Below are positions 1 through 31,449 of a DNA stretch of 64,000 bases, piece after piece; the stretch's first letter is position 1, and every line of letters begins with the position of its first letter. The notes below the pieces were generated by a model. It searched no databases and had not been told where the DNA came from. It worked only from the letters and a program-made list of their open reading frames with translations. The DNA is from Candidatus Multivoradales bacterium (GTDB lineage Bacteria > Acidobacteriota > Thermoanaerobaculia > Multivoradales > JAHEKO01). The stretch is taken from the NCBI GenBank assembly GCA_965248055.1, contig CBDFIJ010000004.1, positions 1,696,001-1,760,000 of the forward strand, given 5' to 3'. The translations under genes and the position numbers were made by a program.

Positions 1-329
1 CGCGCGACCGCGAGGTTGGCGTAGGTCAAGATGCCGACCGGAATCTCGGAGTGCCGTTGGCGGAAACGCGTCAATTGATCGAGGCAGTTCGAAACAGTGG
101 CTCCGGCCTCCAAGGCCCGGACTCCCGCTCTCTGAATCACCGGACCGTCGGCAATTGGATCGGAATGCGGGATACCCAGTTCCAGAGCGTCGGCTCCGCC
201 TTCGACCAAGGCGTCCAAGATGTGGTCAGAAGTTGGGCGATCGGGATCGCCCAAAACCACAAAAGGAACAAAGGCTCCCCTCCCTTGTTCGCTACAACGG
301 GTAAACAAATCAGCATAACGGTCGGTCAT
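1..329 (-). CDS. trpA: Tryptophan synthase alpha subunit (5' part; runs off window)
   Basis: Manual translation MTDRYADLF...[11 protein letters not shown]...[21 protein letters not shown]; ATGA overlap with the trpB stop. Confidence 0.95.
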
Positions 330-12808: not shown

Positions 12809-13510
12809 CTACTCAGACTCCTGGCCCCAAGCAGCCTTCCACCATTTTCCTGGGAAGGTCGTCAGGGAAAAGATCTCGGATTCGGTCAGATACGACCTGC
12901 CGTCCTCTTCGACTTTGTAGTCGGCGTGGAGAGCTCCACTGTGATCTAAACTGGAGAACGTAGCCACCAAGCTCTCTCCGTCATCCCAGTCCTGGCTGAA
13001 CCAACTGCGCGCCCAGCGATCTCGATCCCGAGTCCACAAAGGATCATGCCAGGTGCCGTCGGTCCGAAGCCGCACTTCGGTTGGGCGCAACAGCTTTTGA
13101 TCGGAAGTCGTGTGACGTTGAAATGGTGGACTGGGTGGATCTTCGCTGCGCCACAAAACCACCCACACCTCTGGCCCAGCCATTTCCCGAGCCTTCTCCA
13201 CGTGCTCAGCCCAACTTTCATACAACTTCTTGCAGCGATGAGAGCGACCGTAAAGGTAGACCCGCAAGTAGGGTGGCAAGATCACCCCGCGTGGCCGATC
13301 TTCGCCCGGCTCCTCAAGCCACAAAGGACCGAGTACTTGGTGTCGATTACCGATCCCTTGGTAGTGCTCGATCGGATCGGCGCGACTACAGCCAGCGTTT
13401 ATTGTTGCTCCGATCTGAGCGTCGGTCATGACGGTTCCCTCAGCTCCAAGTCCACCGCTGGACAACAGAACAAGAAACACGCTGATGCCAGCGATTCGAT
13501 GCGCGATCAT
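12809..13510 (-). CDS. Hypothetical secreted protein
   Basis: ORF with GGAGG RBS before MIAHR and a hydrophobic signal peptide; no family recognised. Confidence 0.55.
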   Translation of the reverse strand: MIAHRIAGISVFLVLLSSGGLGAEGTVMTDAQIGATINAGCSRADPIEHYQGIGNRHQVLGPLWLEEPGEDRPRGVILPPYLRVYLYGRSHRCKKLYESWAEHVEKAREMAGPEVWVVLWRSEDPPSPPFQRHTTSDQKLLRPTEVRLRTDGTWHDPLWTRDRDRWARSWFSQDWDDGESLVATFSSLDHSGALHADYKVEEDGRSYLTESEIFSLTTFPGKWWKAAWGQESE

Positions 13511-13721
13511 CTTTCGTCCTCCCAGCTTCATTCCTATTGTCTTCCCGGTCACGAATCATAGCGGGCAGAGAGAAATGTGGCACAACCAACGTCACTGAAC
13601 GGTGGGCGTCCGTCCTACTGGCCATGGTTTATCACCAGGGTGAATTGCCCGACCGTAGACCTTCTACCGTTAGACTGGAAAACCTCGAGGCGCAGCTGAA
13701 GACCAAAACATTTCACTATCC

Positions 13722-15562
13722 ATGACCGCCATTCTCGGTATCTCCGCGTTTTACCATGACAGCGCCGCGGCGTTAGTGGTCGATGGCCGGATCGTCGCGG
13801 CGGCTCAAGAGGAGCGCTTCAGCCGCAAGAAGCATGATTTTCGTTTCCCCAAGCAAGCGATCGAATACTGCCTGCAGGAGGGAGGGTTGGACGCGGCAAA
13901 ATTGGATCACGTCGCGTTTTACGACAAACCGCTGAAGAAATTCGATCGACTGCTCGAAACCTATCTCGCCTACGCACCGGCGGGGTTCAACTCGTTTCGC
14001 CAAGCGATGCCCCTGTGGTTGAAGGAGAAACTTTGGCTGCCGCGACAAATGGATCGAGGCCTCGACAAGCGCTTTGAGGGTCGGTACATCTTTACTGAAC
14101 ACCACGAGTCGCACGCAGCAAGCGCCTTCTATCCCTCGCCCTTTGAAGAAGCGGCAATCCTGACCATGGATGGCGTCGGCGAATGGGCCACCGCCAGTTT
14201 CGGCTCGGGAGCAGGCAATCAATTCGAGCTGACCCATGAACTGCACTTCCCCCATTCCCTAGGGCTGCTCTATTCGGCGTTTACTTACTACGCCGGGTTT
14301 CGCGTCAACAGCGGCGAATACAAACTGATGGGCCTCGCCCCTTATGGCAGCCTCGATACCGAGATCTGATCTTGGAGCACCTGGTTGATCTAAAAGACGA
14401 CGGGTCGTTTGCTCTCGACATGTCGTACTTCAACTACTGCCAAGGGCTGACCATGACCGGTCGTAAGTTTGATCAATTGTTTGGCGGGCCGCCCAGGACG
14501 CCCGAGCAAGAGCTTCGACAACGCGACATGGATCTGGCGGCTTCGATCCAAGCGGTCACCGAAGAAATCATGATGCGCGTGGTGCGTCATGTTCACGCCC
14601 AGACAGGGCAAAAGAATCTAGTGATGGCGGGTGGAGTCGCCCTCAACTGCGTCGCCAACGGCAACCTCTTGCGCGAAGGGCCCTTTGAACACTTATGGAT
14701 TCAACCGGCTGCCGGTGATGCGGGCGGGGCTCTGGGAGCAGCATTGTTTGTTTGGCATCAATTGCTCAACCAGACCCGAACGGTGCAACCGACAAGTGAC
14801 TCCCAGATCGGGTCGCTACTGGGTCCAGCGTTCAGCGACCCAGAGATCCAACTCTTCTTGGAAGGCACCGAGGCCAACTACCAACAGCTCGACGACGACG
14901 CTCTGATGGACCAGGTCGCTGGGTTGATGGCAAACCAGCAGGTCATCGGCTGGTTCTCCGGGCGCATGGAGTTCGGACCTCGAGCGCTGGGTGCTCGCTC
15001 GATTATCGGAGACGCGCGCAGTCGCACCATGCAGCGCACCATGAACACCAAGATCAAGTTCCGAGAGTCGTTTCGACCCTTCGCACCGGTGGTTCTAGCC
15101 GAACACGCTGACCAATACTTTGAGCTGGCACCGGGAGAAGAGAGTCCTTACATGCTGATCGTGGCCGATGTCCGCGACGACAAACGAAGCCCTCTGTCAG
15201 AGGAGCAAGAAAGCCTGACCGGCCTAGCGCGACTTGACGTCGTTCGCTCCCAAGTCCCAGCGATAACTCATGTCGACTTCTCGGCAAGAGTGCAGACTGT
15301 CGACCGTATTCGGCACCCGCGCTTTCACCGCCTGCTCAACGCGTTCTACGAGAAAACTAATTGTCCAGTAGCGATCAACACTAGCTTCAACGTGCGTGGC
15401 GAGCCGATCGTCTGCACTCCCGAAGACGCTTATCGCTGTTTTCTGGCAACCGACATGGACGTCCTGGTGCTCGGCAACCATCTGCTGCTCAAGAAGAATC
15501 AACCTGAATCCCTGTCGAAAACCGAGGCCCGCGATTACGTAGAGAGTTTCGATCTCGACTAG
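13722..15562 (+). pseudogene. NodU/CmcH-family carbamoyltransferase split by a 1-bp frameshift near 14348 (pseudogene or sequence error)
   Basis: ILGISAFYHDSAAAL, EHHESHAASAF, GEYKLMGLAPYG in ORF1; AGGVALNC, EFGPRALG, KFRESFRPFAP, NTSFNVRGEPIV in ORF2; adding one base restores GxPRYRDLILEH. Confidence 0.85.
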
Positions 15563-15589
15563 CGATGAACCCTGACGAACGGAACTAAT

Positions 15590-16000
15590 GTGATCAAAGC
15601 CAATTGGAACCCCGGACTACGAGAGCTAAGACAGTTCTCAATCGGACTCTTGATTGCCTCATTGGTATGGGGAGGGATCCTGTGGTGGCGCCATGGATTC
15701 AACACCGCCTCATGGTGGATCTGGATCATCGGGCCGTTGCTGGCCGCAGTTGGTTGGCTGATGCCACGGTCGATGCGCTATCTGTACCTATTCTTAACCG
15801 CCCTGGCACTGCCGATCGGCTGGGTGGTGGGCAATCTGATGCTGGCATTGATCTACTTTGGGGTGATCACGCCGATCGCGCTTGTTTTCAAATTGATTGG
15901 CCGCGACCCACTAGCCCGGCGCCCTAACCCAAGTGCCGTCAGCTATTGGAAAAAACGTCAGTCTACACCATCGGCGGCCAGATACTTCAACCAGTTTTGA
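15590..16000 (+). CDS. SxtJ-family membrane protein
   Basis: ELRQF, TM helices, IGWV...LIYFGVITPIAL..IGRDPL, SYW...NQF; standard position after the carbamoyltransferase. Confidence 0.8.
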   Translation: MIKANWNPGLRELRQFSIGLLIASLVWGGILWWRHGFNTASWWIWIIGPLLAAVGWLMPRSMRYLYLFLTALALPIGWVVGNLMLALIYFGVITPIALVFKLIGRDPLARRPNPSAVSYWKKRQSTPSAARYFNQF

Positions 16001-16058
16001 CCTGAAACGACCGACGTCGTGGGGGGGAGGCGTACAATGATCCAGAACCGGGAGTGCT

Positions 16059-16250
16059 ATGCCAAAGTCCAACGAATTTGAACGCGAAGCGGAAAAGAAA
16101 CGGCATTCCTTATTCGCCGAGTTCCTTCAGTTCCTGAGAGAGAACAAGAAGTGGTGGATGACCCCGATCTTGATCACCCTGCTTCTGGTGGCGGTGCTTC
16201 TGGTGGCTGGCAGCATCGGTGCTGCACCCTTTATCTACACCTTGTTTTAG
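16059..16250 (+). CDS. DUF5989 / SxtK-like small membrane protein
   Basis: EFLQFLRENKKWWMTPI...APFIYTLF signature. Confidence 0.85.
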   Translation: MPKSNEFEREAEKKRHSLFAEFLQFLRENKKWWMTPILITLLLVAVLLVAGSIGAAPFIYTLF

Positions 16251-16312
16251 AGAGCCTGCTTTTTCACAGGGTCTGCCTCTTCAGAGGGTTGGCTTTTCAC
16301 AAGGCCTGCCGC

Positions 16313-17377
16313 TTAGGCGTCTTCCAGGCGTTCTTCGGTGCGAGCGATAAAGGCCTCCAGACGAGCCCGGCGCTCTTCAACACGGAGCTTTTCTTTCTCC
16401 AAGGCTTCGACTCGATCCTGATCAGCACTTTTCAATTCTTCCTCGACGCGATCCATCTGCTCAACCAATTGCCCGTGCGACAACTGCAGTTCGGCGAGTA
16501 GCGACGCTCTGTCCGCCTTATCAAACATCAAGTCTTCAGGAGCACTGGTCGGGGTGCTGAGCTCAGCAGCCGTTTGCCGAGGAATGAACTCTTTGGTTTC
16601 CGGGTAGCTACGCAAGCTATGGAAATTAGGCGAAAGAATCTCAATGCCAGCACCGTGCAGCGCGTCCAAAGCCGCGATGCGCAACTTGGAGCGGGTGGAG
16701 ACCAACTGCTTCAGGTCGGCCAACAGACCGGCGACGCGGTAGGTGATCGAGAAATCCCCTATATCCACCACCGAGACGAAGGGTTTTTCGAGATTCACTT
16801 CTACCGCTGCGGCCATCAAGGCCTGCCGCACGCTGCGATGACCCACGTCATAGCCCAGCGACAAGGTCGCCGAGACAATGGTCCCCGAAGCCGGAAATAC
16901 CGTGTGAGGATTGGCCACCAAATACAGATTCGGCAGCGTGGTGAGGTTGCGGTTCTCGGTCTGGATCTCGGTGTGGAACAAGCCGATCTCGCTGATCCGA
17001 CCAAAGTGATCGCCAACCCGCAGGAAATCGCCAATGCCCACGTTGTCGAAAATCTGTAACAGACCGCGCGCCATCGCGTTGCCCAACAAAGTGGTGGACG
17101 ACAAGGCGATCGCTGCGGAAAGCAGAATCCCCAACAAGGTTAGCAGCTGGCCGCGCAGGGTCGGATCCATCGGGATGGTGATCAGCGCCAGCAACAAGCT
17201 CAAGATCCAAATCGCGAACAAGCTGAGTTGGAGCCTCAAGCGGGCAGTAGCCACCGACTTCCAGCGCTTGTTCAGCAGCATGTGTACCAACAGCGCAACC
17301 GCGACAATCAGTATCGTCAACGCAATCCCCGGCAGTTGGCCGCGAATTCCTTCCAAGAACGGGGGCAGCGTCATCAA
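16313..17377 (-). CDS. MscS-family mechanosensitive channel with C-terminal coiled coil
   Basis: 3 TM helices, IGDFLRVGDHFGRISEIGLFHTEI, TLPN, SLGYD. Confidence 0.85.
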   Translation of the reverse strand: MMTLPPFLEGIRGQLPGIALTILIVAVALLVHMLLNKRWKSVATARLRLQLSLFAIWILSLLLALITIPMDPTLRGQLLTLLGILLSAAIALSSTTLLGNAMARGLLQIFDNVGIGDFLRVGDHFGRISEIGLFHTEIQTENRNLTTLPNLYLVANPHTVFPASGTIVSATLSLGYDVGHRSVRQALMAAAVEVNLEKPFVSVVDIGDFSITYRVAGLLADLKQLVSTRSKLRIAALDALHGAGIEILSPNFHSLRSYPETKEFIPRQTAAELSTPTSAPEDLMFDKADRASLLAELQLSHGQLVEQMDRVEEELKSADQDRVEALEKEKLRVEERRARLEAFIARTEERLEDA

Positions 17378-17414
17378 TCAACTCTAACCCAGCGAAAGAA
17401 CTCAGCAATAACAC

Positions 17415-17444
17415 TTGCATAATTGTGCAACTGTGCTATAGAAT
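17415..17444 (+). promoter_or_regulatory. Putative ArsR operator and promoter
   Basis: Palindrome TTGCAT-AATT-GTGCAA over a -35-like hexamer; TAGAAT 7 nt before ATG 17452. Confidence 0.5.
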
Positions 17445-17451
17445 CCTCTCG

Positions 17452-17820
17452 ATGACTACTTCAGCGCTCGACACCTCCGCTGCTCCAGAAGACGACTCCC
17501 GTATTTTTCGGGCACTCTCCGATCCTTGTCGATTGCTAATCCTGCAGGAGCTGGTGGGTTGTTGCGGCCAACCGCAGACGGTGAGCCAAACAGCGGGATG
17601 CTGCTCGGTCGATCTTTCCGTGGTCTCACGACACCTGGCGACGCTGCGCGATGCTGGAATCCTGGAATCCAAAAAAGTGGGACGCGAAGTCCACTACACC
17701 GTTCGATACCATGAGCTATCCAATTGGCTCAGAACCATGGCCGACACCCTTGATCGTTGCTGTCCTCAACCGGACGCGGGCTGTGCGACAACGACACAAC
17801 CTAAGGAGGCATGCGAATGA
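17452..17820 (+). CDS. ArsR/SmtB-family regulator, Cys-rich
   Basis: FRALSDPCRLLIL, SVVSRHLATLRDAGIL...GREVHY; three CC pairs. Confidence 0.9.
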   Translation: MTTSALDTSAAPEDDSRIFRALSDPCRLLILQELVGCCGQPQTVSQTAGCCSVDLSVVSRHLATLRDAGILESKKVGREVHYTVRYHELSNWLRTMADTLDRCCPQPDAGCATTTQPKEACE

Positions 17821-17867
17821 CTCGTTTCTTCATTCCGCGCACCGCACACTGCTGCGACGGCGCCTGA
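17817..17867 (+). CDS. Putative 16-aa peptide MTRFFIPRTAHCCDGA
   Basis: AAGGAGG 7 nt before an ATG overlapping the arsR stop (ATGA); followed by inverted repeat GGTCCTG-GG-CAGGACC. Confidence 0.45.
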   Translation: MTRFFIPRTAHCCDGA

Positions 17868-18010
17868 CTTCGGTCCTGGGCAGGACCCTAAACTGCCCGA
17901 CCCGCTTCCTTTCTGAAACAACCCTTTCTCACTCAGCGTACGGCTAATCAGGTGCTGACGCCCGATGGCTGGGTTTGTCTGCCGATGAAATTATCCAGAA
18001 AGGATCTGCC

Positions 18011-19150
18011 ATGGAGTCGCACTTTCCGGCCCAACAGTCTCAAACCACAACATCTCTAGGTAGGCAATTTCTATCAGCACTGGCCGGTGGCATTGGATCT
18101 CACAACCAGACCGACGACAACGACAGCTCCCACGACGCCTACGCTGAGCGCAACCTCAGCAGTCTGGGCGCAGTTCTACTCATCCCCGCGGTGATCGCCG
18201 TCTTCGGCGGTTTTGTCTTCGCTCGTTACCTGGGTGCGTCCTGGTGGTTGGCGGCACCTTTCGCCCTTCTGTGGGGACTGATCATCCTGGCGATTGACCG
18301 CCATCTGGTGTTGACCACCCCGGTGCCTCTGCCCAGAGTTACAGAGGAATCCGGGCGTGGTTGGAGCCGACCCTTGAGAACTTTGGGTCACGTCGGAATT
18401 CGATTATTGCTGGCGCTGTTTCTCGGAACCCTCAACGGTCACCTAGTTGGCCTGCGCCTGTTTGACGATGTGATCTCCGAGGAACTCCACGATCAGTTGA
18501 GCGCCGCACGAGCACAGGTTGATAGCAGCTTCGATCAGCAGCACAGCGACATAAACACCGGGATCACGACCCTCGAACAGCAACTGGAAACCGATCGCCA
18601 GAGACTGGCGCAACTCGACGCCACGGCAGCCGCGGAGATCGCCGGAAGCACCGATCTTCCCGGTACCACCGGGATTCGCGGCGCGGGTGAGGTCTACCAA
18701 CGTTATGAAGTCGCGCTCGACAATGCCCGCCAACAGGTCGCCCAACGACGCCAAGAATTGGAATCCCGACGCGCCGAGATCGCCCCGCAGGTCTTCTCGT
18801 TGGACGAGCGGCAACAGGCGGCGCTGGCGGAGGTGGACCTCACCTTTGGCACCGGGGTCGCAGCCCGCAGCAGCGCGCTAGTCGACCTGTCCCGTCGCGA
18901 GAGTCATATTGGGTTGTTGTTCGGCTTCTTATTGCTGATGCTGGTGACTATTGAAGTCCTGCCAGTGGTTCTCAAGCTACTCACCCCGGTCACCGCCGCC
19001 GACCAGCACTTCGCCTTAGCCAGTTGGGAGCGACAACAAGACATCGCAGTACACAAAGAAGCCGTGCTCTCGACTCACGACTTGCGTATCGCTAGTGCCA
19101 AAAGGAGAATGCAAGCTGAGCAGTTAGTCGACGAAATGGCTAATACATAG
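18011..19150 (+). CDS. DUF4407-like membrane/coiled-coil protein
   Basis: TM block with WGLIILAIDR and IRLLLA, long coiled coil with G..GAG..Y, second TM with IEVLPVVLK. Confidence 0.7.
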   Translation: MESHFPAQQSQTTTSLGRQFLSALAGGIGSHNQTDDNDSSHDAYAERNLSSLGAVLLIPAVIAVFGGFVFARYLGASWWLAAPFALLWGLIILAIDRHLVLTTPVPLPRVTEESGRGWSRPLRTLGHVGIRLLLALFLGTLNGHLVGLRLFDDVISEELHDQLSAARAQVDSSFDQQHSDINTGITTLEQQLETDRQRLAQLDATAAAEIAGSTDLPGTTGIRGAGEVYQRYEVALDNARQQVAQRRQELESRRAEIAPQVFSLDERQQAALAEVDLTFGTGVAARSSALVDLSRRESHIGLLFGFLLLMLVTIEVLPVVLKLLTPVTAADQHFALASWERQQDIAVHKEAVLSTHDLRIASAKRRMQAEQLVDEMANT

Positions 19151-19303
19151 AATTAGGCACGCTAACACTCAACTGATCGAGGAACCTCACACCGTCACCG
19201 CGAGCTGGGAGCACTAGCTTCGTTTGTTCGACCGGATTCCTATGCTTCCTATTTTCGGCTAGTAGTGCCTCTTTGAATCATCGGTCCAGTAACATCTGCG
19301 TCA

Positions 19304-22300
19304 GTGAAATACGCATCAGGCGGGAAAGCAAATTGGCTCGGGGCGAATTTCGAGAAGCGGGTTGCCACTGAATCGCTCATCACACTTCTCCTTGACGGAA
19401 GGGTATCCACTCAATCACTTGTCGCAGTGAGACTCCAAGCCGCCTCGCGCCCAGACGATATCCATCTCTTCTTTCACGATGGCACTGAACATAGAGTTTC
19501 CGTAAAGTCAGGAGCTCTCAGATACTCATGGAACTCTAATGAGCGGTTCGTTTCGGCCATTGACGAATTCATCGTCGCTTTCAATGATAGGAATCCGAAC
19601 TTAACTCGCTTGGTTCTCTCAACAGAAGCAGAACTCTGTAGCAGAAAGGTACATCACTTCGGGCGATGGCTCGACAAAGTGCGATGTCATCCAGACCTGT
19701 CCTCTTTGTCTGAATCTTCAACCTCGCAAGAAGAAAATCAGTTCTTGGATGACGTAAAGCGGAAACTCAGCGAAAGTGTCAATGATATTCACGATTTCCT
19801 AGCTCTGGTCCACGTTGAAGGGTCAATCGGCTACGAACAATGGTTTGACCAAACTGTAATTCGATTGGCTCAAACCTTGGGGATAAGTTCGGCGCGCGCA
19901 AAAGAGATATTGTTTTGTATTGAATCCTTGGTGGCAAAGTACTCAAGTCACGGCGGTCTCGTCAACAGAAATGCCCTCGACAGTGCCCTCGGAAACACTG
20001 GAGCCGCCAGAACAGCCGTTCCAGCACGGGTCCTTCGGGTCTTTCGACGAGAAGATCTGCACCAGCTTACTGACTATGTAGTTCAAGACCAGGCGTTGGG
20101 CTTACAGCTAATTGAGCGCCCCGAACTTATCTGCGCGGAGCCATCAACTCTCACTGTTGTGACCGGGAGGCCGGGAAGCGGGAAGTCGCGCGCACTAGCA
20201 ACGAGGTGTCTCAGTGACCACCCTGCAACTACGATCGTCGTCGGCCCCAGGTTTAGGGAAGAACATCTGCCTGCATTGCGCGAGGTTCTCGTCCGAGAAC
20301 CATGTGTCCTTCTTTGGGATGACGTGGAGGCAAACAACACATTGGTAACTGAAACCGTCGCGGAAGTGTGTGCGCTTGAGAATCACCGAATTTTGCTCTC
20401 TTGCTCTCAGCAGGAATCTCTCGAGTTGATAGACAACCTTCATCAATGGACCCCAAATCACTGTAGCCCAACATTGATAAAACTTGTCCCATTCGACTAC
20501 AAGTCTCTTCTCCGTCTCGTGACCGACCTCGAGCAAAGAATCGGTCTTGAGTTATGCGATGAGACAAGGAACGCTCTTGTGGATCACGCCTTTGCAGCCG
20601 ATGGCGGACCGCGCTTCGCTGTATCCCTTGGGCGGCTCGTAAAACAGAAAACTACTGGAAGAATTAGGCCGGAAGACGTTGCTAAACTGCCCAGTGATCT
20701 AGTACTAGTTTGGCGAAGTCTCTATAGATCTCTGAATTTCGATCGGACAGCTCAAACCGTTCTGAAGCTCTTCAGATTCTTTGCTCAACGAGGTATCCGC
20801 GTCGGTATTGCGGGAGCGGAAGCTGTTGCTGGTATCGCATTGGACATCCCCAACAACGACTTCGACTTGACCGTGGAGCGGCTCTTGGAATCGGGCTGGT
20901 TAGTAGGCCTTGACGAAGTCGAGCTGTGCCACGAGGTGTGTATTGCCGCAATCCCTAACTTCAGCTCTCATCGGCAAGACCGAATCGAAGGCACAATAGC
21001 CTTCAATGACAAGATCGATGGTGAAATTGGCCTTCGTCTTCGATGTGACCTGGTTTCATACCTCTTAGTGGCCTCAACCGTCGCGGTGAGTGAGAATGAG
21101 GCAACAAGCGCAGCGGTACGAGCGGCGACCGTCGGTATGTTAGCGATTGACAAGGTTGTCGGTTGGCATAATTCAGGAAGTTTTACCGAACTACAAATCA
21201 CCACAGCCACCGCTTGCAATGTCGCTGCTGCACAGGGACTTGATAGTGGTTCTATATTTGGATCCGCGACCGCAATAAAACTCAGCTGTGGAGAAGCTGG
21301 TCAGGAGCGGAGGAATTGGTTTCTCGAAAAGGGGGCGGAATTAGCTGGCGATTGTATTGCCCGAGTTATTTCCGAGACTGCGGTCAGTCCAGATTTGCTG
21401 ATTGCGCAGAGCGGACTAATCAAAGTTGAAAGTTGCTGGGCGCGGGCAATGCTGGGTACTAAGACCGGACAGGAAAGAACTGCACTGCTTGAAGAAGCAA
21501 GAAGTCTGGCAACCGAAGTTATCCGATTCTCCGAGAACACCCACAACTTAAGATATCTTGCCCTCGGTCTAATAACCCGTAGCAATACCCTCTTTTATCT
21601 TGCTTCGGAAGGTCCCGGAACATACCTATGGATGGCCTTTCGTGCCCATTTGGACGCCTCTAGAGCAATTGTCATCTGTCAATTAAACGGTTTTGTCCGA
21701 CTTATCGCTGCCGCACTTCTTCCTGCGGCAGCTTCAGAAGCTCGCATTTCAAGTTTTTCTGAGGGTGTAGCACGAAGTGAACTACTGGAGAGTTCACGCA
21801 CTCGTTCTTTGGAGGCAAGTAAGAGTTTCGAATATTTAGGATTAAGTGAACTTGAAGCCCATGCTCTATCAAACTGCGCAGACGCGACTTTTGAGCTCGG
21901 GGAGAATGAGCAAGAACAAAAAAGAGTTCAAATCGTTCGCCTCGGAGACGCAGCGATCTCTGCAGCTAAGCGTTCTGGCAACGGCATTGCTCTATTCGAG
22001 GCTCAAGTGGGGGCGGCTATTCGAAAAATGGAACTTGGCAAGCTCGATGAATCTCTTGTTCCGAGTGCTGTAGCACTCGCGAAATCTGCTCTTCATACGG
22101 CCCAGAACTACGGAAATACTAGAAATCTTGGCCGGGCCTACCTAGCGCTAACCCGAACAGTGGTCGTAGCTATGGAGTGTTCCAAGGAAATCGAGGAAGA
22201 GCAAAAGTGGCGTGCCTACGGCCTTGAGTTGGCCGAGAAAACAATCCAGGCCCACATCGATAGTGACTACTCGTCCCTACTTTCTTTGTCTCTCTTGTTG

Positions 22301-22498
22301 GCTCGTCTTGATGCAAAAACAGAAACCGAAACGGCACTCACGCTACTAATATCTATCGCTAAAGAAGCAATTGAACCCTCGCTCTCCGATCTTACCTACG
22401 ATATCGGAAGGAGCTTAACTGAAACTGGAACCGATACCGGTAGAGAACTAGGGATCTCATTGGTGATCGCTGCTCTTAATAGCACTTTCACCGAATAG
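19304..22498 (+). CDS. STAND-like P-loop NTPase with N-terminal PD-(D/E)xK-like nuclease and C-terminal helical/TPR-like region (candidate Avs-like defence protein)
   Basis: SGG..N..G..FE..VA, RLQ....PDDI, SVK; Walker A GRPGSGKS; Walker B VLLWDD; GGP sensor-like motif; visibly AT-richer than flanks. Confidence 0.65.
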   Translation: MKYASGGKANWLGANFEKRVATESLITLLLDGRVSTQSLVAVRLQAASRPDDIHLFFHDGTEHRVSVKSGALRYSWNSNERFVSAIDEFIVAFNDRNPNLTRLVLSTEAELCSRKVHHFGRWLDKVRCHPDLSSLSESSTSQEENQFLDDVKRKLSESVNDIHDFLALVHVEGSIGYEQWFDQTVIRLAQTLGISSARAKEILFCIESLVAKYSSHGGLVNRNALDSALGNTGAARTAVPARVLRVFRREDLHQLTDYVVQDQALGLQLIERPELICAEPSTLTVVTGRPGSGKSRALATRCLSDHPATTIVVGPRFREEHLPALREVLVREPCVLLWDDVEANNTLVTETVAEVCALENHRILLSCSQQESLELIDNLHQWTPNHCSPTLIKLVPFDYKSLLRLVTDLEQRIGLELCDETRNALVDHAFAADGGPRFAVSLGRLVKQKTTGRIRPEDVAKLPSDLVLVWRSLYRSLNFDRTAQTVLKLFRFFAQRGIRVGIAGAEAVAGIALDIPNNDFDLTVERLLESGWLVGLDEVELCHEVCIAAIPNFSSHRQDRIEGTIAFNDKIDGEIGLRLRCDLVSYLLVASTVAVSENEATSAAVRAATVGMLAIDKVVGWHNSGSFTELQITTATACNVAAAQGLDSGSIFGSATAIKLSCGEAGQERRNWFLEKGAELAGDCIARVISETAVSPDLLIAQSGLIKVESCWARAMLGTKTGQERTALLEEARSLATEVIRFSENTHNLRYLALGLITRSNTLFYLASEGPGTYLWMAFRAHLDASRAIVICQLNGFVRLIAAALLPAAASEARISSFSEGVARSELLESSRTRSLEASKSFEYLGLSELEAHALSNCADATFELGENEQEQKRVQIVRLGDAAISAAKRSGNGIALFEAQVGAAIRKMELGKLDESLVPSAVALAKSALHTAQNYGNTRNLGRAYLALTRTVVVAMECSKEIEEEQKWRAYGLELAEKTIQAHIDSDYSSLLSLSLLLARLDAKTETETALTLLISIAKEAIEPSLSDLTYDIGRSLTETGTDTGRELGISLVIAALNSTFTE

Positions 22499-22516
22499 CG
22501 ATCAACAAATACGCGC

Positions 22517-24586
22517 TCAAAACAACCTTCTCTGCTCAGTCTCCGGCGGTCGAAACGAAGCTACCGATAGCTTCGCCGCTCCCTTTTGCAGCCCCACTCT
22601 GCGCCGGTTGATCTCAAAAAAATCATGTAACTCAGTCGCCAGGTGACCTTGCCCCCGGCCACGGCTGGCAAAGTCAGATTGATTGAGACTTCCCTGTCGT
22701 AACTGCCGAATGCGCGATAGGACTTTGTCCTTGCGGGCGGGAAAGTGGCTGTCCAACCAATCAACAAAGATGCCTTGAACCGCTCCAGGAAGTTTGAGCA
22801 GGATGTAGTTGGCGCGCTCGGCACCGGCAGAAGCAGCGGCATCTAGGATCGCAGGAATCTCGTGGTCGGTGAGTCCCGGAATCGAGGGTGCGATCATCAC
22901 CGAGGTGGGGATCCCAGCAGCGTTGAGTTCGCGTACCGTTTTCAATCGAGATCGCGGATGAGAAGCGCGCGGCTCCATCACCTTGGCCAAGTCGCCATCC
23001 AGGGTCGGGATCGAGATCGCGACTCCCACCGCATTGTGGCTGGCCAACTCGGCGAGCAAGTCAAGGTCGCGGGTCACCAGTTGGTTTTTGGTTATCAACA
23101 TCACCGGATTGCGCGCCTCAGCGAGCACCTCCAGGCAGCCACGCGTGACCTTGAGTTTGCGCTCGATCGGCTGGTAGGGATCGGTGACCCCTGACATCCC
23201 GAGTGGCTTGGGCAGCCACTTGGACGACGCGAGCTCGTGACGCAGGAGATCGGCGGCGTTCTCTTTGACCAGGATCTTGGTTTCAAAGTCGAGTCCGGCG
23301 GAGAAGCCCAAGAACTCGTGGCTGTTGCGGGCGAAGCAATTATGACTCACAACTCCGTTGGCGATGAAATCGCCGGTGCCCGTTTCGATATCATAAAGGT
23401 GGCGCTCATCAGCCAGAGGCTCGATCGCAAGAATCTCTAAGTCGGCGCCACTTTTCAAGGCTTGACCTTCGATGCATTTTTTTCGGGAGATCGCTGGGGC
23501 GGTAGTATGCCAAAAGCGTAGACATTCTTTCAACCCGCCCAATAATCTGACTACTTGCAGTGGTTTTCCCTGTTTCCGAATTGGCCGCTCGACCACGCAT
23601 TCAAAACCGAATGCGGACATCGAGTCTAGGATCTGACGAATGATCTCTAGGTCCGTATTCGAAATTCGAAAAACTCTGCGGCTGTAGGAACCCTCGGCAT
23701 CAAAGATGCCAGCAAGAAATCCCTTCTGCCACATTGGCGAAGGCGACTGCGGCCATTCGACGACTTGCCTGATCACGTCGACCGCTTCACGAGCGCTCGT
23801 TCTTATTGCTCGCACTGGTCGAGAGGTGTCTGTCCCAGGCTGAAACTCGAATGAGTAAAGATCGAGCCCCAGGTTCTCGAGGTACTGACGGGAGCGATCC
23901 AAAGCCTGCTCGTCAGCCAGTGCGAGACGAAACTGATGCACGTTACCGCGCGTTCGCCCTTCTCTTTCATACTGGTATGACGCCAAGTGCCCATCGCCTC
24001 GTACCATCCCACACAGATACCCTCTCCGGTATTCGTGATCCGACTCATCTGGAGGAAACGTCGAGCCTCCTGTGCCCAAGAGTCGATTGTTCGTCGTCAG
24101 GTGCGGTCGGCGATGAGGTCCTTGCTCTTTGCCTACAACGTACTTCCAACCCCGCTCGGTCAGAAATCGATGGTTAGGTCCAGCGATGAGTTCCGTTCCG
24201 TCCGCCAGGATGATCCGGTAGGCGGGCTGCCTTGTGGCCCAATGGGCGTGAACCTGAGTCCTCGTGTATTTGCGGTAGTGGCCCTTGCGAGTCGTTCCGT
24301 ATATTTCATCTCCCGGACGTATCTCGGCCAACGAACGAGTTGACCCGTCCGCCATGAGAATCCGCGTTTCGCCATCCAGACAGTAGGAGCATCCGTGCTC
24401 GCAACCTCGATAAGGATTGATCGAAGCGTCAAAGGCGACATCGGGGCTTTTATTGGTGGCGATGATGCTCTTGCTGGAATCGACTAAGTACTGGGTCGAT
24501 TTCCGGTCGAGTCGAGGCTCGTCCCATTCAAGCGATAGACGCTCAAAGCGGTTAGCTGGGTTGTTGTCTACTCCTCGACCTTTCAT
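22517..24586 (-). CDS. Rv2578c/PA0069-family radical SAM protein containing an intein
   Basis: GRG..NNP.NRFE, SINPYRGCEHGCSY|intein|CFAR, TDPYQPIER, ITKN, MEPRA, IPGLTD; start placed downstream of the terminator at 24631-24666. Confidence 0.92.
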   Translation of the reverse strand: MKGRGVDNNPANRFERLSLEWDEPRLDRKSTQYLVDSSKSIIATNKSPDVAFDASINPYRGCEHGCSYCLDGETRILMADGSTRSLAEIRPGDEIYGTTRKGHYRKYTRTQVHAHWATRQPAYRIILADGTELIAGPNHRFLTERGWKYVVGKEQGPHRRPHLTTNNRLLGTGGSTFPPDESDHEYRRGYLCGMVRGDGHLASYQYEREGRTRGNVHQFRLALADEQALDRSRQYLENLGLDLYSFEFQPGTDTSRPVRAIRTSAREAVDVIRQVVEWPQSPSPMWQKGFLAGIFDAEGSYSRRVFRISNTDLEIIRQILDSMSAFGFECVVERPIRKQGKPLQVVRLLGGLKECLRFWHTTAPAISRKKCIEGQALKSGADLEILAIEPLADERHLYDIETGTGDFIANGVVSHNCFARNSHEFLGFSAGLDFETKILVKENAADLLRHELASSKWLPKPLGMSGVTDPYQPIERKLKVTRGCLEVLAEARNPVMLITKNQLVTRDLDLLAELASHNAVGVAISIPTLDGDLAKVMEPRASHPRSRLKTVRELNAAGIPTSVMIAPSIPGLTDHEIPAILDAAASAGAERANYILLKLPGAVQGIFVDWLDSHFPARKDKVLSRIRQLRQGSLNQSDFASRGRGQGHLATELHDFFEINRRRVGLQKGAAKLSVASFRPPETEQRRLF
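23339..24382 (-). mobile_element. 348-aa intein with LAGLIDADG homing endonuclease
   Basis: Block A CLDGETRILMADG; block B AGPNHRFLT; YLCGMVRGDG and FLAGIFDAEG; blocks F/G LYDIETGTGDFIANGVVSHN|C. Confidence 0.95.
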
Positions 24587-24630
24587 CTTGAACAGCTTAT
24601 CTTCGGTTTCGAGATCGAACCTCCAGATAC

Positions 24631-24666
24631 AAAAAGGCGGCTCTGGTCCCCCGACCAAGAGCCGCC
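24631..24666 (-). terminator. Intrinsic terminator after 24695-25486
   Basis: Minus strand GGCGGCTCTTGGTC-GGGG-GACCAGAGCCGCC-TTTTT. Confidence 0.8.
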
Positions 24667-24694
24667 CCTCCGCGTCCTCGCGGATGAAAACGCG

Positions 24695-25486
24695 CTACTC
24701 CCCTTCTTCTTCCTCTTCTTCCTCTTCTTCATCCATGCCCGGGCCGTAGATGATCCAATACAACTCGTCGCTGTGGCCACTGCGGTCCATCACTTCGGCC
24801 CGCGTAGCCCTGCTTTCCTCGCTACTAGCAGCTTCATAAGCTGCACCAATTGCATCATTTTTGTCGAGGCCCGAGAACGTTTGCCAGCCGCCATGAGTCC
24901 ACTCAGAGTTGGTGTGGTACTCCTGCGAGAAGGTTCCGTAACCACTGATCACGCCGTCGGCCAGTAGCTGAGCATCAATTCCATTACCACCGTCCATCCA
25001 TGCACTCGCTTCAGCGCGTTTTCCAGGCTGGGCTTTGAACACGGAAATCGACAAGAACTCCGCTGCGGGAGCATCGGCGTTGTACTCGAAGGTCGAGTGG
25101 CTAATGACCATTTCGTCCATGCCGTGGATCAGGTCTTGTAAGTCCTGCTGAGAGCTTTCGCCCTCTTCGCCTAACTCCTTAAAGTGAGCCTCAAATGCTC
25201 CAGTGGTTGCCTCCCACGCAGTCCAACTGGGGTAGGTAACCCAGGCCATATGAGTGTACTCAGGCCCGTCCAAGGTTCGATTGGCGATACCCCAACCCAT
25301 CACGTTTCCGGCGTCCATTTGGCCGTTTAGGACGTCGTTAAGACCATACTTTTTCATGTGATCAACCAAGCCGTTACCGTCTTGATCTTTGGCTTGGTAA
25401 TAGGTCACCAAGCTGATCGGATCGGCAGCCGCCACCACCGGAAATACCAATAACAAAGCTAATACAAGTAATCCAAACCGCTTCAT
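24695..25486 (-). CDS. Secreted hypothetical protein with duplicated alpha/beta module and poly-Glu tail
   Basis: Signal peptide MKRFGLLV..VAAA; two similar halves (Y/F.AK/Q...G.. and YTH/WTH); E9 tail. Confidence 0.7.
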   Translation of the reverse strand: MKRFGLLVLALLLVFPVVAAADPISLVTYYQAKDQDGNGLVDHMKKYGLNDVLNGQMDAGNVMGWGIANRTLDGPEYTHMAWVTYPSWTAWEATTGAFEAHFKELGEEGESSQQDLQDLIHGMDEMVISHSTFEYNADAPAAEFLSISVFKAQPGKRAEASAWMDGGNGIDAQLLADGVISGYGTFSQEYHTNSEWTHGGWQTFSGLDKNDAIGAAYEAASSEESRATRAEVMDRSGHSDELYWIIYGPGMDEEEEEEEEEGE

Positions 25487-25596
25487 TCAACCTCCTGTTT
25501 GCTCCGTTGCACAATGCAACTTCAAAAAAACTTGTGACAAAGATAGCACAGGGTGACAACCCTGTTGCACACAAATGTATGGTACGGTGTGCTGCT

Positions 25597-26214
25597 ATGG
25601 GCAAGACACCCCCCGGAGAAACTCGACACAGCGTCTTTAACTTCGTGCGCCAGCGATTACTCGCGGGAGAGCCTCCAACGGTGCGTGAGGTTCAAAAGGA
25701 ATTCGGTTTTCGTTCGGTACAGACCGCGCGCCAGCATTTGGAAACCCTGGTTGGCGAAGGTCGTTTGAGCAAAACGGCCGGTCATGCCCGAGCTTATCGC
25801 CTGCCACAACCGGTCCAGGTATCCCCCCGTTGGATACCGCTGTTGGGACGGGTGCAAGCAGGATCATTGACCACGGCCGTGGAAGACCTGGAGGGCTATT
25901 TGCCCCTGGACAATCGCTCTATGGGGCATGACGTCAGCGACGAATTGTTTGGTCTGCGAGTGCAAGGTGACAGCATGATCGGGGTCGGCATCCTGGATCG
26001 AGATGTGGTGGTCGTTCGTCGCCAGCCGACCGCTGATTCTGGAGCCATCGTGGTCGCTCTGGTTGGCGATGAGGCAACCGTCAAGCGACTTCATAAGCAC
26101 GGGGGACAACTCGAGCTTCGGGCCGAGAATCCGCGCTATGAGTCGATCATCCCGGATCCCAAAGAGCTGTCCATCTTGGGCAAGGTAATCGAAGTGCGGA
26201 GGTTCCTGGGGTGA
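25597..26214 (+). CDS. lexA: LexA repressor
   Basis: PPTVREV...FRS....HL..L; cleavage site GRVQAG; catalytic GDSM and ATVKR. Confidence 0.93.
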   Translation: MGKTPPGETRHSVFNFVRQRLLAGEPPTVREVQKEFGFRSVQTARQHLETLVGEGRLSKTAGHARAYRLPQPVQVSPRWIPLLGRVQAGSLTTAVEDLEGYLPLDNRSMGHDVSDELFGLRVQGDSMIGVGILDRDVVVVRRQPTADSGAIVVALVGDEATVKRLHKHGGQLELRAENPRYESIIPDPKELSILGKVIEVRRFLG

Positions 26215-26849
26215 ACTTAGTCGCCGCTCGGAAGCCTGCGTTGCACTACCAGGATTCGATCCGGCGTGGGGTTGATAGGCCGACAACCGCCACTGGGTGG
26301 TCCTTGCCAACCTTTTGCGGTCGCTTGGTAGAACTTTCCGCAGGACACGCCAGCGCAGTCTTGAGCCTGACCATGCGGTTGATTCGTGAAGCACAATTGC
26401 AAGGAGAAACCGTGGCCTGGGTGGCGCGCCCGGGAAGCTCCTTTTTCCCTCCCGACGCGGTGCGCTGTGGCGTAGACCTGGGCGCCTTGCCGGTGATTCG
26501 CCCACGACAAACCATGGACGCCTTGAGCGCTGCTGATCATTTACTGCGTTCGGGGGCTTTCGGCTTGGTCGCCATCGACCTTCAACCCAGAGCCTTCCTG
26601 CCAATGCGCGCCCAAACACGGTTAGCCTCGTTGGCCAAAAAGCATCTATCCGCCCTGTTGTTATTGACTGAGAAAGAGCAAACCCAAGCTTCGCTGGGAT
26701 CGTTGATCTCGCTACGAGCACATATTGAACGGCATGCCGACAGCAGCGGAAGACGCTACCGGTGTCGAGCTCAAGTATTGAAAGACAAGCAAAACGGACC
26801 GGGTTGGCAACACCTGGAGACCCTCAGTGGACCGCCTGGCTTGTCTTGA
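26211..26849 (+). CDS. imuA: ImuA (RecA-like mutasome subunit)
   Basis: GRLVELS, AWV, FFPPD...GVDL, LLRSGAFGLVAID; lies between lexA and imuB. Confidence 0.85.
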   Translation: MNLVAARKPALHYQDSIRRGVDRPTTATGWSLPTFCGRLVELSAGHASAVLSLTMRLIREAQLQGETVAWVARPGSSFFPPDAVRCGVDLGALPVIRPRQTMDALSAADHLLRSGAFGLVAIDLQPRAFLPMRAQTRLASLAKKHLSALLLLTEKEQTQASLGSLISLRAHIERHADSSGRRYRCRAQVLKDKQNGPGWQHLETLSGPPGLS

Positions 26850-28341
26850 TCTGCCCGCGTTTCCACTCCAACTGCAGTGCAATCGGCAACCGGAATGGCG
26901 GCAATTTCCTTGCGCGATCATTGACCATGACAAGCCGCAAGGCTGCCTGCTTTGGGTCAATGAAAAGGCTCGAGAGAAAAGAATCCTGCCGGGGATGCGC
27001 TATGCCTCAGCACTGGCGCTGAGCAAAGAACTCCGCGCCACAGAAATGGCTGCAGCTCAGGTCGAGCAGGCGATTGAACAACTATCCGAAGAAACACTAG
27101 CGGCATTCTCGCCGCGCGTCGAGATTTCAGAAAAAGAACCTGGGATCTTTTGGTTGGATCTTGCCGGCTTGGAGCGACTGTTCCCCGACTTGGAACATTG
27201 GGGTCAACGATTGCAGCGGCGCTTACAAAGCGCAGGCTATGTCGGCCGTATCGTTATCGGCTGGGATCGCTTTTGCACCTACGCACTGGCGAAGCAAGCG
27301 GGTAGGCAAAGCTCTGGTCACCAATTGCGGGTTGGCTCCTCTCCAGAGCAAGAAAGACAAGATGCCTCACAGGTACCACTAGCTCGCTTGCACCTCGACC
27401 CAAAGATCCGCGAAGCACTCAACGACTTGGGAGTCAGGACGGTCGGTGAGTTCATCACTCTGCCCCGACAAGGGATCGACCGTCGCTTTGGCACATCGGT
27501 CAGGAAACTCCATGAGTTAGCCTGTGGCGAACGAGAACCCCCTCTACAAGCCCATGTCCTCACCGAAGAGGTCTCGGAAGGGGTCTTCTTGGAGCAATCG
27601 ATTGTCGACCTAGAGCGATTGCTGCGATGGATTGAGTCGCTTCTCACGATGGGGCTAAAGACCATCCAAAGCCGGGGGGAATGCGCGCAAGCCCTGACTC
27701 TCGAACTGTGCTCGGAAAATGGTTCTGTTGCAACCCAACAACTCCGACCAGCCGAACCGACCAACGACCTGGGTCAATGGCTAGAACTGGTGCGATTGCG
27801 CCTAGAGTCGCAATCGATCGACAACGTTCAAGAGTTGCGAGTGGCGATCAACGGGCGGTGCGTGTCACCGGGTCAAATGGAGTTATTTGCCCGTGCTCCC
27901 CGACGCGACCTTGCGGCGGCCAATCGTGCTTTGGCTCGCATTCGGGCAGAACTGGGAGATCACCGTGTCTGTCAAGCCGAGATCCAAGATGGACATCTAC
28001 CGGAAGCTCGCTTTACTTGGCAGCCGGCAGGAAAACTGAGCGCCGCGCAACCTCCTTCTTTAGGCCAAGCGACCCTGGTTCGCCGCTTGTTCCATCGACC
28101 CAAAGCCTTGCCGCCTCGGACGCGACGAGAACCCGACGGCTGGTTGATGCGCGGCCTGGGCGATAGTTTGGCCGATAGCCCGGTGGATCGGGTGCGCGGT
28201 CCTTTCATCATTGCTGGAGGTTGGTGGCGTCGATTGGTTCATCGCGAATACCACTTCGCGGAAACCCGTAACGGCGAGTTGCTATGGACTTATTACGACC
28301 GTGTCCGTCGTCGTTGGTTTCTGCACGGACGCGTGGAGTAA
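26827..28341 (+). CDS. imuB: ImuB (inactive Y-family polymerase)
   Basis: LACLDLPAFPLQ, FSPRVE, LG..TVG.F..LP, RFG, GPFIIAGGWW, REYH, WFLHG. Confidence 0.9.
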   Translation: MDRLACLDLPAFPLQLQCNRQPEWRQFPCAIIDHDKPQGCLLWVNEKAREKRILPGMRYASALALSKELRATEMAAAQVEQAIEQLSEETLAAFSPRVEISEKEPGIFWLDLAGLERLFPDLEHWGQRLQRRLQSAGYVGRIVIGWDRFCTYALAKQAGRQSSGHQLRVGSSPEQERQDASQVPLARLHLDPKIREALNDLGVRTVGEFITLPRQGIDRRFGTSVRKLHELACGEREPPLQAHVLTEEVSEGVFLEQSIVDLERLLRWIESLLTMGLKTIQSRGECAQALTLELCSENGSVATQQLRPAEPTNDLGQWLELVRLRLESQSIDNVQELRVAINGRCVSPGQMELFARAPRRDLAAANRALARIRAELGDHRVCQAEIQDGHLPEARFTWQPAGKLSAAQPPSLGQATLVRRLFHRPKALPPRTRREPDGWLMRGLGDSLADSPVDRVRGPFIIAGGWWRRLVHREYHFAETRNGELLWTYYDRVRRRWFLHGRVE

Positions 28342-28359
28342 CAAGTACAGCTAGAACCC

Positions 28360-31300: not shown

Positions 31301-31449
31301 TCGCCTTGTTGATCAAAACCACTTCTTTCCTGGGGGTTAAGGGACGACTACAAAAGCAAGATGGTGTAGTTCATCTGATTGCCGATGAATTCTGGCAACC
31401 GGATCTCGAGGCTCGCCCGGCCTCCGGCGGTAGCCATGATTTTCATTAG
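28360..31449 (+). CDS. dnaE2: Error-prone DNA polymerase DnaE2 (ImuC)
   Basis: SNFSFLEGASHPEEL, GRGSAANS, PDIDLD, GFPESHA, C-terminal SHDFH. Confidence 0.96.
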   Translation: MSYANLWTKSNFSFLEGASHPEELIETADRLGISALALTDRDGVYGVVEAHTAARRLGIQLILGSEITISDSTTLVLLAQTQEGYANLCRLISSGRLRCEKGSSQVDWGDVCDHANGLIGLWGGERSLLTSKVNPFFVANRLREAFDDRLYALVTRHRRVEESEQERLLRRRAKRYRLPLIAGVEVLYHRASRKPLQDVLTVLRHKTTLPQAGRRIKANAEHALATFPAFQDLFTDDPAAVARTLEVAQRCPFSLGEIRYRYPAEDLPDGQTSTSWLRHLTFDGAKGRYQGEVPTAVTTQLDKELALIEELDYGGYFLTMWEIVQFCRRQEILCQGRGSAANSAVCYCLGITAVDPIRLGLLFERFLSRERAEPPDIDLDIEHNRREKVIQFVYAKYGREYAAMVANVVRYRTRSAVRDVGKALGIPATELDRLAKILPHYGGVEADAFRQSGFDPQAPTYGHLLRLTQEIQDFPRHLSIHPGGFLLGYKPVATLVPIENATMENRTVIQWDKESLEELGLFKIDLLGLGALYQLHLGFDLLREAKGEQWSMASIPSDDPETFAMIQQADTVGTFQIESRAQMSMLPRLKPKNYYDLVVEVSIVRPGPITGGMVHPYLRRRNGEEEITYPHPSLEPVLKKTLGIPLFQEQVIRLAMVAADYTPGEADQLRRDMAAWRRSGRIERHRERLIRRMTAKGITLEFAERVFEQIRGFGEYGFPESHAASFALIAYATAWMKCHHPEVFLCSILNAQPMGFYSPATLIEDAKRHGVEVLPLDVLYSKWDCTLEVNPGKAHSVRMGMRYVKGLRQETWRQVQEVVDQNQLFDSLETLIHAADLNEATVVRLAKAGAFQTLENQRRLALWRGRGAARSVVMELPLIDREQPAQLQPLDAFSEIGWDYATSRHSARGHPLKPLRGALAKAGLPQASDLNLKADKERVQYAGMVICRQRPGTASGVLFMTLEDESGFVNVVVWAKTFEQFALLIKTTSFLGVKGRLQKQDGVVHLIADEFWQPDLEARPASGGSHDFH

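Follow-up and report, generated by a model that had tools for sequence, protein, structure and literature searches.

What does the gene at 19304..22498 encode, does it act alone, and how did it come to lie in a bacterial chromosome in whose close relatives it was not found? It sits in a 64,000-nucleotide stretch of the genome of a Candidatus Multivoradales bacterium (GCA_965248055.1, contig CBDFIJ010000004.1, positions 1,696,001 to 1,760,000; hereafter the window). Its protein is referred to as P0001, its own genome as G000, and a genome of the same genus used for comparison as G001. A sequence-only reading of the window had proposed a horizontally acquired antiphage protein combining a nuclease, a signal transduction ATPase with numerous domains (STAND) and a helical sensor, possibly partnered with an upstream membrane protein. 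Our analysis favors a self-contained Avs-type (antiviral STAND, or bacterial NLR-like) immune receptor of an unnamed and very rare family, acquired horizontally as a single gene; we put the probability of this reading at about 0.7. The architecture is what suggests an antiphage function. The features of the gene are given below, with row counts that refer to the family alignment (A4, 37 rows).

19304..22498, plus strand: whole open reading frame (ORF), 1064 aa, GTG start and TAG stop; a single-gene insertion
19304..20008, plus strand: predicted Cap4/DUF4297-type PD-(D/E)xK nuclease domain, residues 1–235, from the AlphaFold2 model and fold matches
19352..19354, plus strand: E17 in helix 1 (G..FE motif), a Glu that may be catalytic or bind metal; present in 22 of the 23 rows covering this position
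19454..19459, plus strand: D51-D52 at the start of strand 2 (PDD), placed by hhalign register; D52 in 26 of 29 rows
19499..19507, plus strand: S66-V-K68 in strand 3, placed by hhalign register; K68 in 26 of 28 rows
20087..20971, plus strand: predicted STAND NTPase module (nucleotide-binding domain, helical domain, winged helix), residues ~262–556
20165..20188, plus strand: Walker A, G288RPGSGKS295; K294 in 31 of 33 rows
20309..20323, plus strand: Walker B or kinase-2-like motif, L336LWDD340; D339 in 29 of 29 and D340 in 27 of 29 rows
20405..20407, plus strand: S368, in place of the Arg otherwise conserved in the family ('RVLAxxR', RNBS-B/sensor-1-like), which 26 of 29 rows have
20603..20611, plus strand: G434-G-P436, GxP (GLPL-like), in the helical domain; P436 in 30 of 31 rows
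20930..20932, plus strand: H543, winged-helix His (MHD-like); H in 29 of 30 rows
20972..22495, plus strand: Ala/Leu-rich presumed helical sensor, residues 557–1064 (508 aa), of a type common only to P0016 and P0026/P0035
19151..19303, plus strand: upstream intergenic region; from ~19176 it has no counterpart in G001 and belongs to the insertion (junction comparison)

The ORF was found at exactly the coordinates and length claimed for it, and the motifs named beforehand are all in place (G13-ANFE17, P50-DDI53, S66-V-K68, G288RPGSGKS295 and L336LWDD340). The stop-free run at this position extends over 1073 codons, against 135 ± 26 (maximum 258) in 1000 shuffles of 19000-22800. An in-frame TGA occupies 19274-19276, the GTG of P0001 is the first start codon after it, and the N-terminus VKYASGGKANW lines up with the starts of homologues (MERASIGGRANW). 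The gene is present in one copy in its genome. The segment 18500-23300 was bridged without differences by one contig in each of four runs from one sample; these runs are possibly the source of the assembly, so they do not count as independent support. Among the sequencing runs listed as containing the gene, none is of RNA. A promoter and terminator scan at the gene gave nothing above shuffles, and no Rfam family was found in 15-27 kb of the window; presumably 19151..19303 carries the promoter and the 5′ untranslated region.

The nuclease claim was examined on an AlphaFold2 model of residues 1–255 (17 homologues in the alignment; predicted local distance difference test score 85.2, predicted template modeling score 0.81). 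The modeled core has the order α-β-β-β-α-β (helices 15–30 and 81–94; strands 39–44, 53–57, 62–68 and 100–108) and is followed by a helical bundle at 114–229. Foldseek returned 19 matches in the PDB at E ≤ 1e-3, headed by Cap4 of M. osloensis (6vm5, 2.2e-6) and Avs3 (8dgc_A, 2.5e-6), with A. baumannii Cap4, HamA (8zue_A), LmuA and HerA-DUF4297 also among the top matches. The best folds are all defense effectors with a Cap4 nuclease (6vm5/6wam/6vm6, 8dgc_A, 8zue_A, 9hr5/9nxx and 9c1m). VIA-align gave 14.7 for 6wam_A and 6vm6_A (the latter over 195 residues, root-mean-square deviation 3.6), 14.3 for 8dgc_A (197 residues, deviation 3.3, model residues 10–231 on chain residues 10–244), 14.2 for 9c1m_G, and 13.4 for 8zue_A and 9hr5_A; ordinary restriction enzymes gave 5–7. 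The same fold search against the BFVD viral structure library produced no match at E ≤ 1e-3. On the strength of the model, the N-terminal domain is a Cap4-type PD-(D/E)xK nuclease fold, which bears out the earlier claim of a nuclease at this end of the protein.

Four Cap4_nuclease sequences were available for comparison, from other genomes within the phylum (the 4 of 151 searched that match PF14130); G000 is not among them. (This tally, that of sub-threshold nSTAND5 matches and that of the 401-genome profile search, both below, include G063 and G088, which are flagged as unpublished; nothing else reported here depends on these two genomes.) The hhalign match between the N-domain profile and these sequences was weak (E 0.025), yet it was in register: P50-D-D lies over H-E-D, so that D52 corresponds to the Asp of the Cap4 'HED', and S66-V-K68 lies over Q-I-K. 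E17 may be a further catalytic residue. P0001 shares with Cap4 the PD-(D/E)xK core and the C-terminal helical bundle, and differs from it in helix 1, which reads G..FE.R here and G..F.YQ there. In contrast to Cap4, LmuA, HamA and HerA-DUF4297, the P0001 nuclease is fused to a STAND NTPase rather than to SAVED, and it has no SMC or HerA pairing.

The central module had been called a STAND NTPase, and the call holds: GRPGSGKS, LLWDD, GGP and H543 hardly vary across the family, and both the language-model atlas and hhalign agree. The atlas placed residues 256–560 with nSTAND3/NB-ARC/nSTAND5 clusters (0.96 and 0.95) and WHD_MalT (0.93), and hhalign against three nSTAND5 sequences gave a probability of 95.7 over 115 columns. 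Pfam nSTAND_NTPase5 (PF25199) is the commonest family among members (13 of 20, best E 5.8e-8). The motif series of P0001 is what we take to be the P-loop, kinase-2, RNBS-B, GLPL and MHD series of NB-ARC-type STAND proteins. Measured against nSTAND_NTPase5, nSTAND3 and NB-ARC, the protein has the P-loop, LLWDD (kinase 2), GxP and the winged-helix His; it departs from the NB-ARC-like set at the Arg after strand 4 (RNBS-B/sensor 1), where it has Ser368. In the family this Arg belongs to 'RVLAxxR', which sits ~28 residues past Walker B. By its sequence motifs, the segment of residues ~262–556 is a STAND-type NTPase.

The remaining part of the protein had been described as about 500 aa of Ala/Leu-rich helical repeats. 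The composition stood up (14.3% Ala, 13.1% Leu and 1.0% Pro over residues 561–1064); helical repeats were supported only indirectly, above all through a profile match to the homologues' array of repeats resembling tetratricopeptide repeats (TPRs). BLAST detected no internal repeat within residues 561–1064, and Pfam detected no TPR in P0001. A word-indexed search with the C-terminal part alone returned only P0001 itself, and in the exhaustive search only the alignments of P0016 (25% identity to P0001, 873 columns, E 2e-28) and P0026 reached into it; P0035, the full-length cluster member of P0026, aligns there as well. When a profile of the three C-termini was compared with the TPR-like array of the main family, it matched in two registers (probability 86, E 5e-6, and probability 78, E 1.8e-5). 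Homologues carry TPR_12 and related repeats (Pfam), and a search of PDB sequences with an alignment profile (A2) returned only TPR proteins (E about 1e-3). The language-model atlas assigned the C-terminal part to TPR clusters (0.89), which we treat as a lead only. The C-terminal part is presumed, from these profile matches, to be a diverged helical repeat sensor.

Nuclease fold, STAND NTPase and presumed C-terminal helical sensor together give the effector-STAND-TPR layout of Avs and NLR-like proteins that had been claimed. Avs proteins in the broad sense of Gao 2022 and Lee 2026 have a large, mostly TPR-like sensor of 400 aa or more at the C-terminus. The closest parallel in arrangement is with SeAvs7 and SeAvs3, whose single chain likewise runs from a Cap4-fold nuclease through a STAND NTPase to a helical repeat sensor. 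SeAvs7, as the accessible text of Lee et al. (2026; PMC13581612) describes it, consists of Cap4, STAND and TPR parts and uses K292, D358, R395 and H545; R395 touches the ATP γ-phosphate in the active tetramer and H545 touches ADP in the closed state. The residue numbers are nearly alike (K292 and H545 there, K294 and H543 here), and the Cap4 deletion made in SeAvs7 covers residues 2–225 (PMC13581612, accessible text). There are also differences. P0001 has S-x-K rather than Q-x-K in the nuclease and Ser at the predicted γ-phosphate Arg, and its sensor, unlike those of SeAvs7 and SeAvs3, is common to only two other known proteins. At 1064 aa it is also much shorter than the Avs3 chain in 8dgc (2028 residues).

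A working cycle can be drawn by analogy with SeAvs3 and SeAvs7 (PMC13581612) and HerA-DUF4297 (PMC11291478), as described in the accessible parts of both papers. At rest, the NTPase would hold ADP, His543 of the winged helix would close the module, and the Cap4-like nuclease would be kept apart. Binding of a conserved protein of an invading phage by the C-terminal helical sensor would open the NTPase, which would take up ATP, and protomers would then oligomerize through it. This would bring the Cap4-type nuclease domains into dimers that could cut double-stranded DNA without sequence specificity; in HerA-DUF4297, a promiscuous dsDNA nuclease becomes active when the DUF4297/Cap4 domain dimerizes (PMC11291478, accessible text). 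Such cutting would halt the phage's replication but sacrifice the cell. Ligand sensing, oligomerization, DNase activity and protection are all expected of P0001 on the basis of this likeness.

Whether the gene was acquired, and whether it was acquired alone, was addressed by comparing 13000-29000 of the window with G001. The distance from the DUF4407 gene (18138-19081) to the end of the radical-SAM gene (22578 onward) is 231 bp in G001 and 3497 bp in the window, and 18 bp separate the stop of the STAND ORF from that of the convergent radical-SAM gene. The empty site in G001 (L011, about 1325-1375) holds about seven tandem CACTAAC copies in the spacer between the two genes; in the window only a degenerate trace of this repeat is left, near 19160-19175. 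The composition of the gene is likewise distinct, as the description of it as AT-richer implied. GC content is 0.49–0.53 in the four 1-kb windows of 19001-23000, against 0.55–0.64 in the 18 preceding windows, and its third-position GC content (GC3) of 0.47 is the lowest in the window (0.634 ± 0.052 for the 41 other ORFs of 150 aa or more). No copy was found in 40 relatives (0/1 of the same genus, 0/24 of the same family, the rest of the same order). The gene is foreign to this genome, and horizontal acquisition, as suggested from sequence, is upheld by GC3, by the failure to find the gene in these relatives and by the clean insertion relative to G001. No recombinase, adjacent tRNA or target-site duplication was seen at the insertion. 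A flanking inverted repeat (19215-19236 and 22542-22563, 22 nt, 77%) was set aside, being of a size expected by chance and having one arm within the conserved radical-SAM gene.

The same comparison bears on the suggestion that the STAND gene and the upstream DUF4407 membrane gene form a two-gene system. The two are co-oriented and 153 bp apart, the DUF4407 protein has a weak ZorA-like PADLOC match (E 0.0041), and its gene is itself accessory: a search of 26 genomes at E ≤ 1e-20 matched it in G000 and in one relative out of 25, G001. Synteny contradicts a partnership, since G001 keeps DUF4407 (70% identical) beside the radical-SAM gene without any STAND gene. Their GC3 values are also unlike (DUF4407 has 0.66, which is normal for the window, and the STAND gene 0.47), and neither DUF4407 nor a conserved neighbor of any other kind stands beside homologues in the seven contexts described below. 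Among the papers that a literature search listed for DUF4407, none was functional. Because the DUF4407 and radical-SAM genes are only 231 bp apart in G001, we read the locus as a clean single-gene insertion in which DUF4407 is the older resident and not the partner; a two-gene system is very improbable. As a separate observation, DUF4407 forms a pair with an ArsR-type helix-turn-helix (HTH) gene (17425-19150, plus strand), and this pair is itself accessory.

The family to which the single-gene receptor belongs is very rare. A search of 5.8 billion clusters yielded four relatives, and an exhaustive search of 1.84 billion representatives gave 29 matches at E ≤ 1e-3 including P0001 (28 relatives), with 20 at 1e-10 and 7 at 1e-30. 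Within the phylum, the family profile found 1 of 401 genomes, namely G000; G085 matched only in TPR positions. Named records with relatives comprise three Anaerolineae/Anaerolineales metagenome-assembled genomes (MAGs), one Phycisphaerae MAG and two Methanotrichaceae archaeal MAGs, and eight additional metagenome loci hold relatives. None was found in the viral contigs, phage records or plasmid records searched. One Anaerolineales homologue (L021 7561-8910, identical to L005 3762-5111) has 449 aa, comprising nuclease and NTPase without the sensor, and ends in unrelated sequence; it may be a truncated or frameshifted copy.

Catalogue searches agreed with the earlier statement that no named subtype fits, in that P0001 passed no Pfam, NCBIfam or PADLOC threshold. 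It matched no Avs model of PADLOC at E ≤ 10, and has no detectable sequence relation to the Avs1–5 models; among relatives, the only match to these models was a chance-level one to Avs2 (P0009, E 0.048). One link to a defense catalogue exists, by way of the PADLOC candidate PDC-M54A (PDLC04702, 1621 positions). Six relatives (L007, L018, L019, L021, L022 and P0012) match its first ~370 positions, the region of the nuclease and the start of the NTPase, with E values of 8e-9 to 7e-15. P0001 does not match it even at E ≤ 10, and the model is about 1.5 times longer and part of a multi-gene candidate. PADLOC detected no other PDC-M54 component beside the family members examined, and the literature searched did not mention PDC-M54. 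The records MBN1323336 and MBN1659375 were not found in the searched part of the supplements of Lee et al. (2026).

Several results weigh against an Avs-type receptor, and we consider them together. P0001 lacks a match to Cap4_nuclease PF14130 (Pfam, E ≤ 0.01; six-frame search of its own genome, E ≤ 0.001) and to any NCBIfam model, and neither the whole protein nor any of its three parts is matched by PADLOC, even at E ≤ 10. Its nSTAND5 score is 17.2 bits (E 0.0046), below the 34-bit cut-off; its relatives, at 23–28 bits, are likewise below it. Sub-threshold nSTAND5 matches are non-specific: every one of the 151 genomes sampled has them, as does each of 14 control genomes, and they include unrelated P-loop proteins. 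A search of PDB sequences with P0001 itself gave no match. With the NTPase profile the best match was the signal recognition particle receptor FtsY (E 8.8e-6), a generic P-loop match, and solved STAND structures were not found. P0001 is the sole family member with both a Q66S and an R368S substitution, and its branch length is 1.49 against a median of 0.21. A plausible defense neighbor was present in 3 of 7 homologue contexts (L006, L007 and L020), of which L006 and L007 are syntenic, too few for statistics; and PADLOC gave no specific match among the 44 window ORFs scanned.

The two substitutions deserve closer attention. In the alignment, 28 rows have a residue at position 66; P0029–P0032, which have an unrelated N-terminus and are misaligned, were set aside. 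Of the 24 true N-domain homologues left, 22 have Gln and two have Ser (P0001 and P0012), and the family consensus is Q-A-K. The remark that S-x-K replaces the usual Q/E-x-K is borne out, and in the alignment S-x-K is a genuine but minority state. P0012 is an N-terminal fragment of the same gene as P0035. No relative is closer to P0001 than P0035 (27% identity over 777 residues, E 7e-51), its sister in the tree (support 100/99; 24 rows of at least 420 aa, with 13 shorter rows left out). At position 368, Arg is found in 26 of 29 rows, Ser in P0001 and P0016, and Ile in P0024. Judged by spacing, residue 368 would be the counterpart of SeAvs7 R395 (sensor 1).

Such a pair of changes could mark a decaying or repurposed relic, in which nuclease chemistry (Q66S), ATP-state sensing (R368S) or both have been lost and the protein is inert or serves in binding or scaffolding. 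The long terminal branch would fit this, as would the joint occurrence of both substitutions in P0001 alone. P0001 is also the lowest-scoring family member against PDC-M54A and nSTAND5, with no PADLOC match where six relatives have one, and it has no defense neighbors in the window. However, the ORF is intact over 1064 codons and the other key residues are retained (E17, D52, K68, K294, D339/D340, P436 and H543). S66 recurs in P0012/P0035 and S368 in P0016; that each substitution is common to an independent relative suggests that the variation is tolerated. S-x-K active sites occur in working restriction enzymes such as Cfr10I. Nor need the change from Arg368 to Ser be disabling, because activation of SeAvs7 is by conformational change and requires no hydrolysis, and the Walker motifs of KpAvs8 are degenerate (PMC13581612, accessible text). 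On balance we regard decay or repurposing as unlikely. A more specific version of the receptor reading takes the opposite view of the same residues, with S-x-K and the missing Arg forming a working variant mechanism in a compact Avs-like receptor of an uncatalogued STAND lineage from a little-studied group of bacteria; the orphan sensor would have a target beyond the mapped phage proteins. This is tentative, and we would give it only a small chance. If it were true, P0001 might be an ATP-binding-only switch, or its nuclease chemistry might be altered, for example to nicking or to a different metal site.

Homologue neighborhoods were the other place to look for a link with defense. Seven contexts were usable (L002, L005=L021, L006, L007, L018/L019, L020 and L022); L003, L004 and L023–L025 were too short and were dropped. 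No neighbor is conserved across the seven. In the syntenic L006 and L007, a HEC-01A ATPase lies directly downstream (E 7e-86 and 1.5e-82) together with a DinG-like helicase, and L007 has a PIN gene upstream of the homologue. L020 contains a PIN/AF2212 pair and a protein of KAP-NTPase/trypsin type (QatA, 4.6e-30). In L022, an IS200-type transposase is directly upstream of the homologue. Four of the seven contexts are housekeeping in character (CO dehydrogenase, GH31, ABC transporters, histidine kinase). PADLOC matches to mad3 and AriA in the housekeeping contexts were rejected, as these are ABC-transporter ATPases. The expected association with defense islands was not borne out in these contexts or in the window, where the STAND gene is surrounded by a trp operon, a TonB receptor and a LexA, ImuA-like, ImuB and DnaE2 cassette. 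For their part, Lee et al. accept the effector criterion alone (PMC13581612, accessible text). Separately, L006 (a Methanotrichaceae MAG) carries at 49-693 (plus strand) the C-terminal end of a second protein with the same TPR-like repeats, upstream of the family member at 690-3791 (plus strand); it has the appearance of a tandem paralogue truncated where the contig ends.

These surroundings raise the question of whether P0001 is instead a STAND-type signaling or regulatory protein with no part in phage defense, its N-domain being a DNA-binding module. Many STAND clades are non-defense: in the accessible text of Lee et al. (2026; PMC13581612), 198 of 589 clades are defense-associated. The position of the gene in a core chromosomal region beside an SOS cassette, and the four housekeeping contexts, are compatible with such a role. 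Set against it, the closest folds to the N-domain are all defense nuclease effectors, which match across the core and the helical insert, and the family conserves the candidate catalytic E, D and K. Pfam detected neither an HTH nor any other output domain in P0001. The sporadic distribution across domains of life and the recent insertion also argue for defense, as do the matches of relatives to PDC-M54A. A non-defense regulator is, in our judgment, quite improbable.

If P0001 is an Avs-type receptor, the kind of protein it represents is already well known, because the accessible text of Lee et al. (2026) counts 589 STAND clades and at least 90 sensor families. What is new is a very rare compact lineage, overlooked by the usual annotation libraries and common to bacteria and methanogenic archaea. 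The picture of how Cap4-STAND receptors work stays unchanged by it. P0001 is a short, self-contained candidate for ligand-discovery screens, and the natural pair of Q66S and R368S could show how much canonical nuclease and NTPase chemistry such receptors need.

Some other features of the window were noted in passing. A carbamoyltransferase (NodU/CmcH type) is split into 13722-14369 and 14372-15562 (plus strand), which are in different frames with a junction TGA at 14367-14369; Carbam_trans_N positions 2–221 lie in the first ORF, and positions 224–346 and the C-terminal domain in the second. The split reflects a frameshifted pseudogene or, alternatively, an error in sequencing. The radical-SAM gene downstream of P0001 (22517-24658, minus strand; PA0069/Rv2578c family) contains an intein with a LAGLIDADG domain (23336-24385, residues ~92–441). 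G001 lacks the intein, and ~1049 bp of the window (23340-24389) have no counterpart there. Between this gene and the SOS cassette lies an unassigned 263-aa gene (24695-25486, minus strand). The SOS mutagenesis cassette itself spans 25507-31449 (plus strand) and comprises LexA (25507-26214), an ImuA-like RecA-fold protein (26211-26849), an ImuB-like Y-family polymerase (26827-28341) and DnaE2 (28360-31449).

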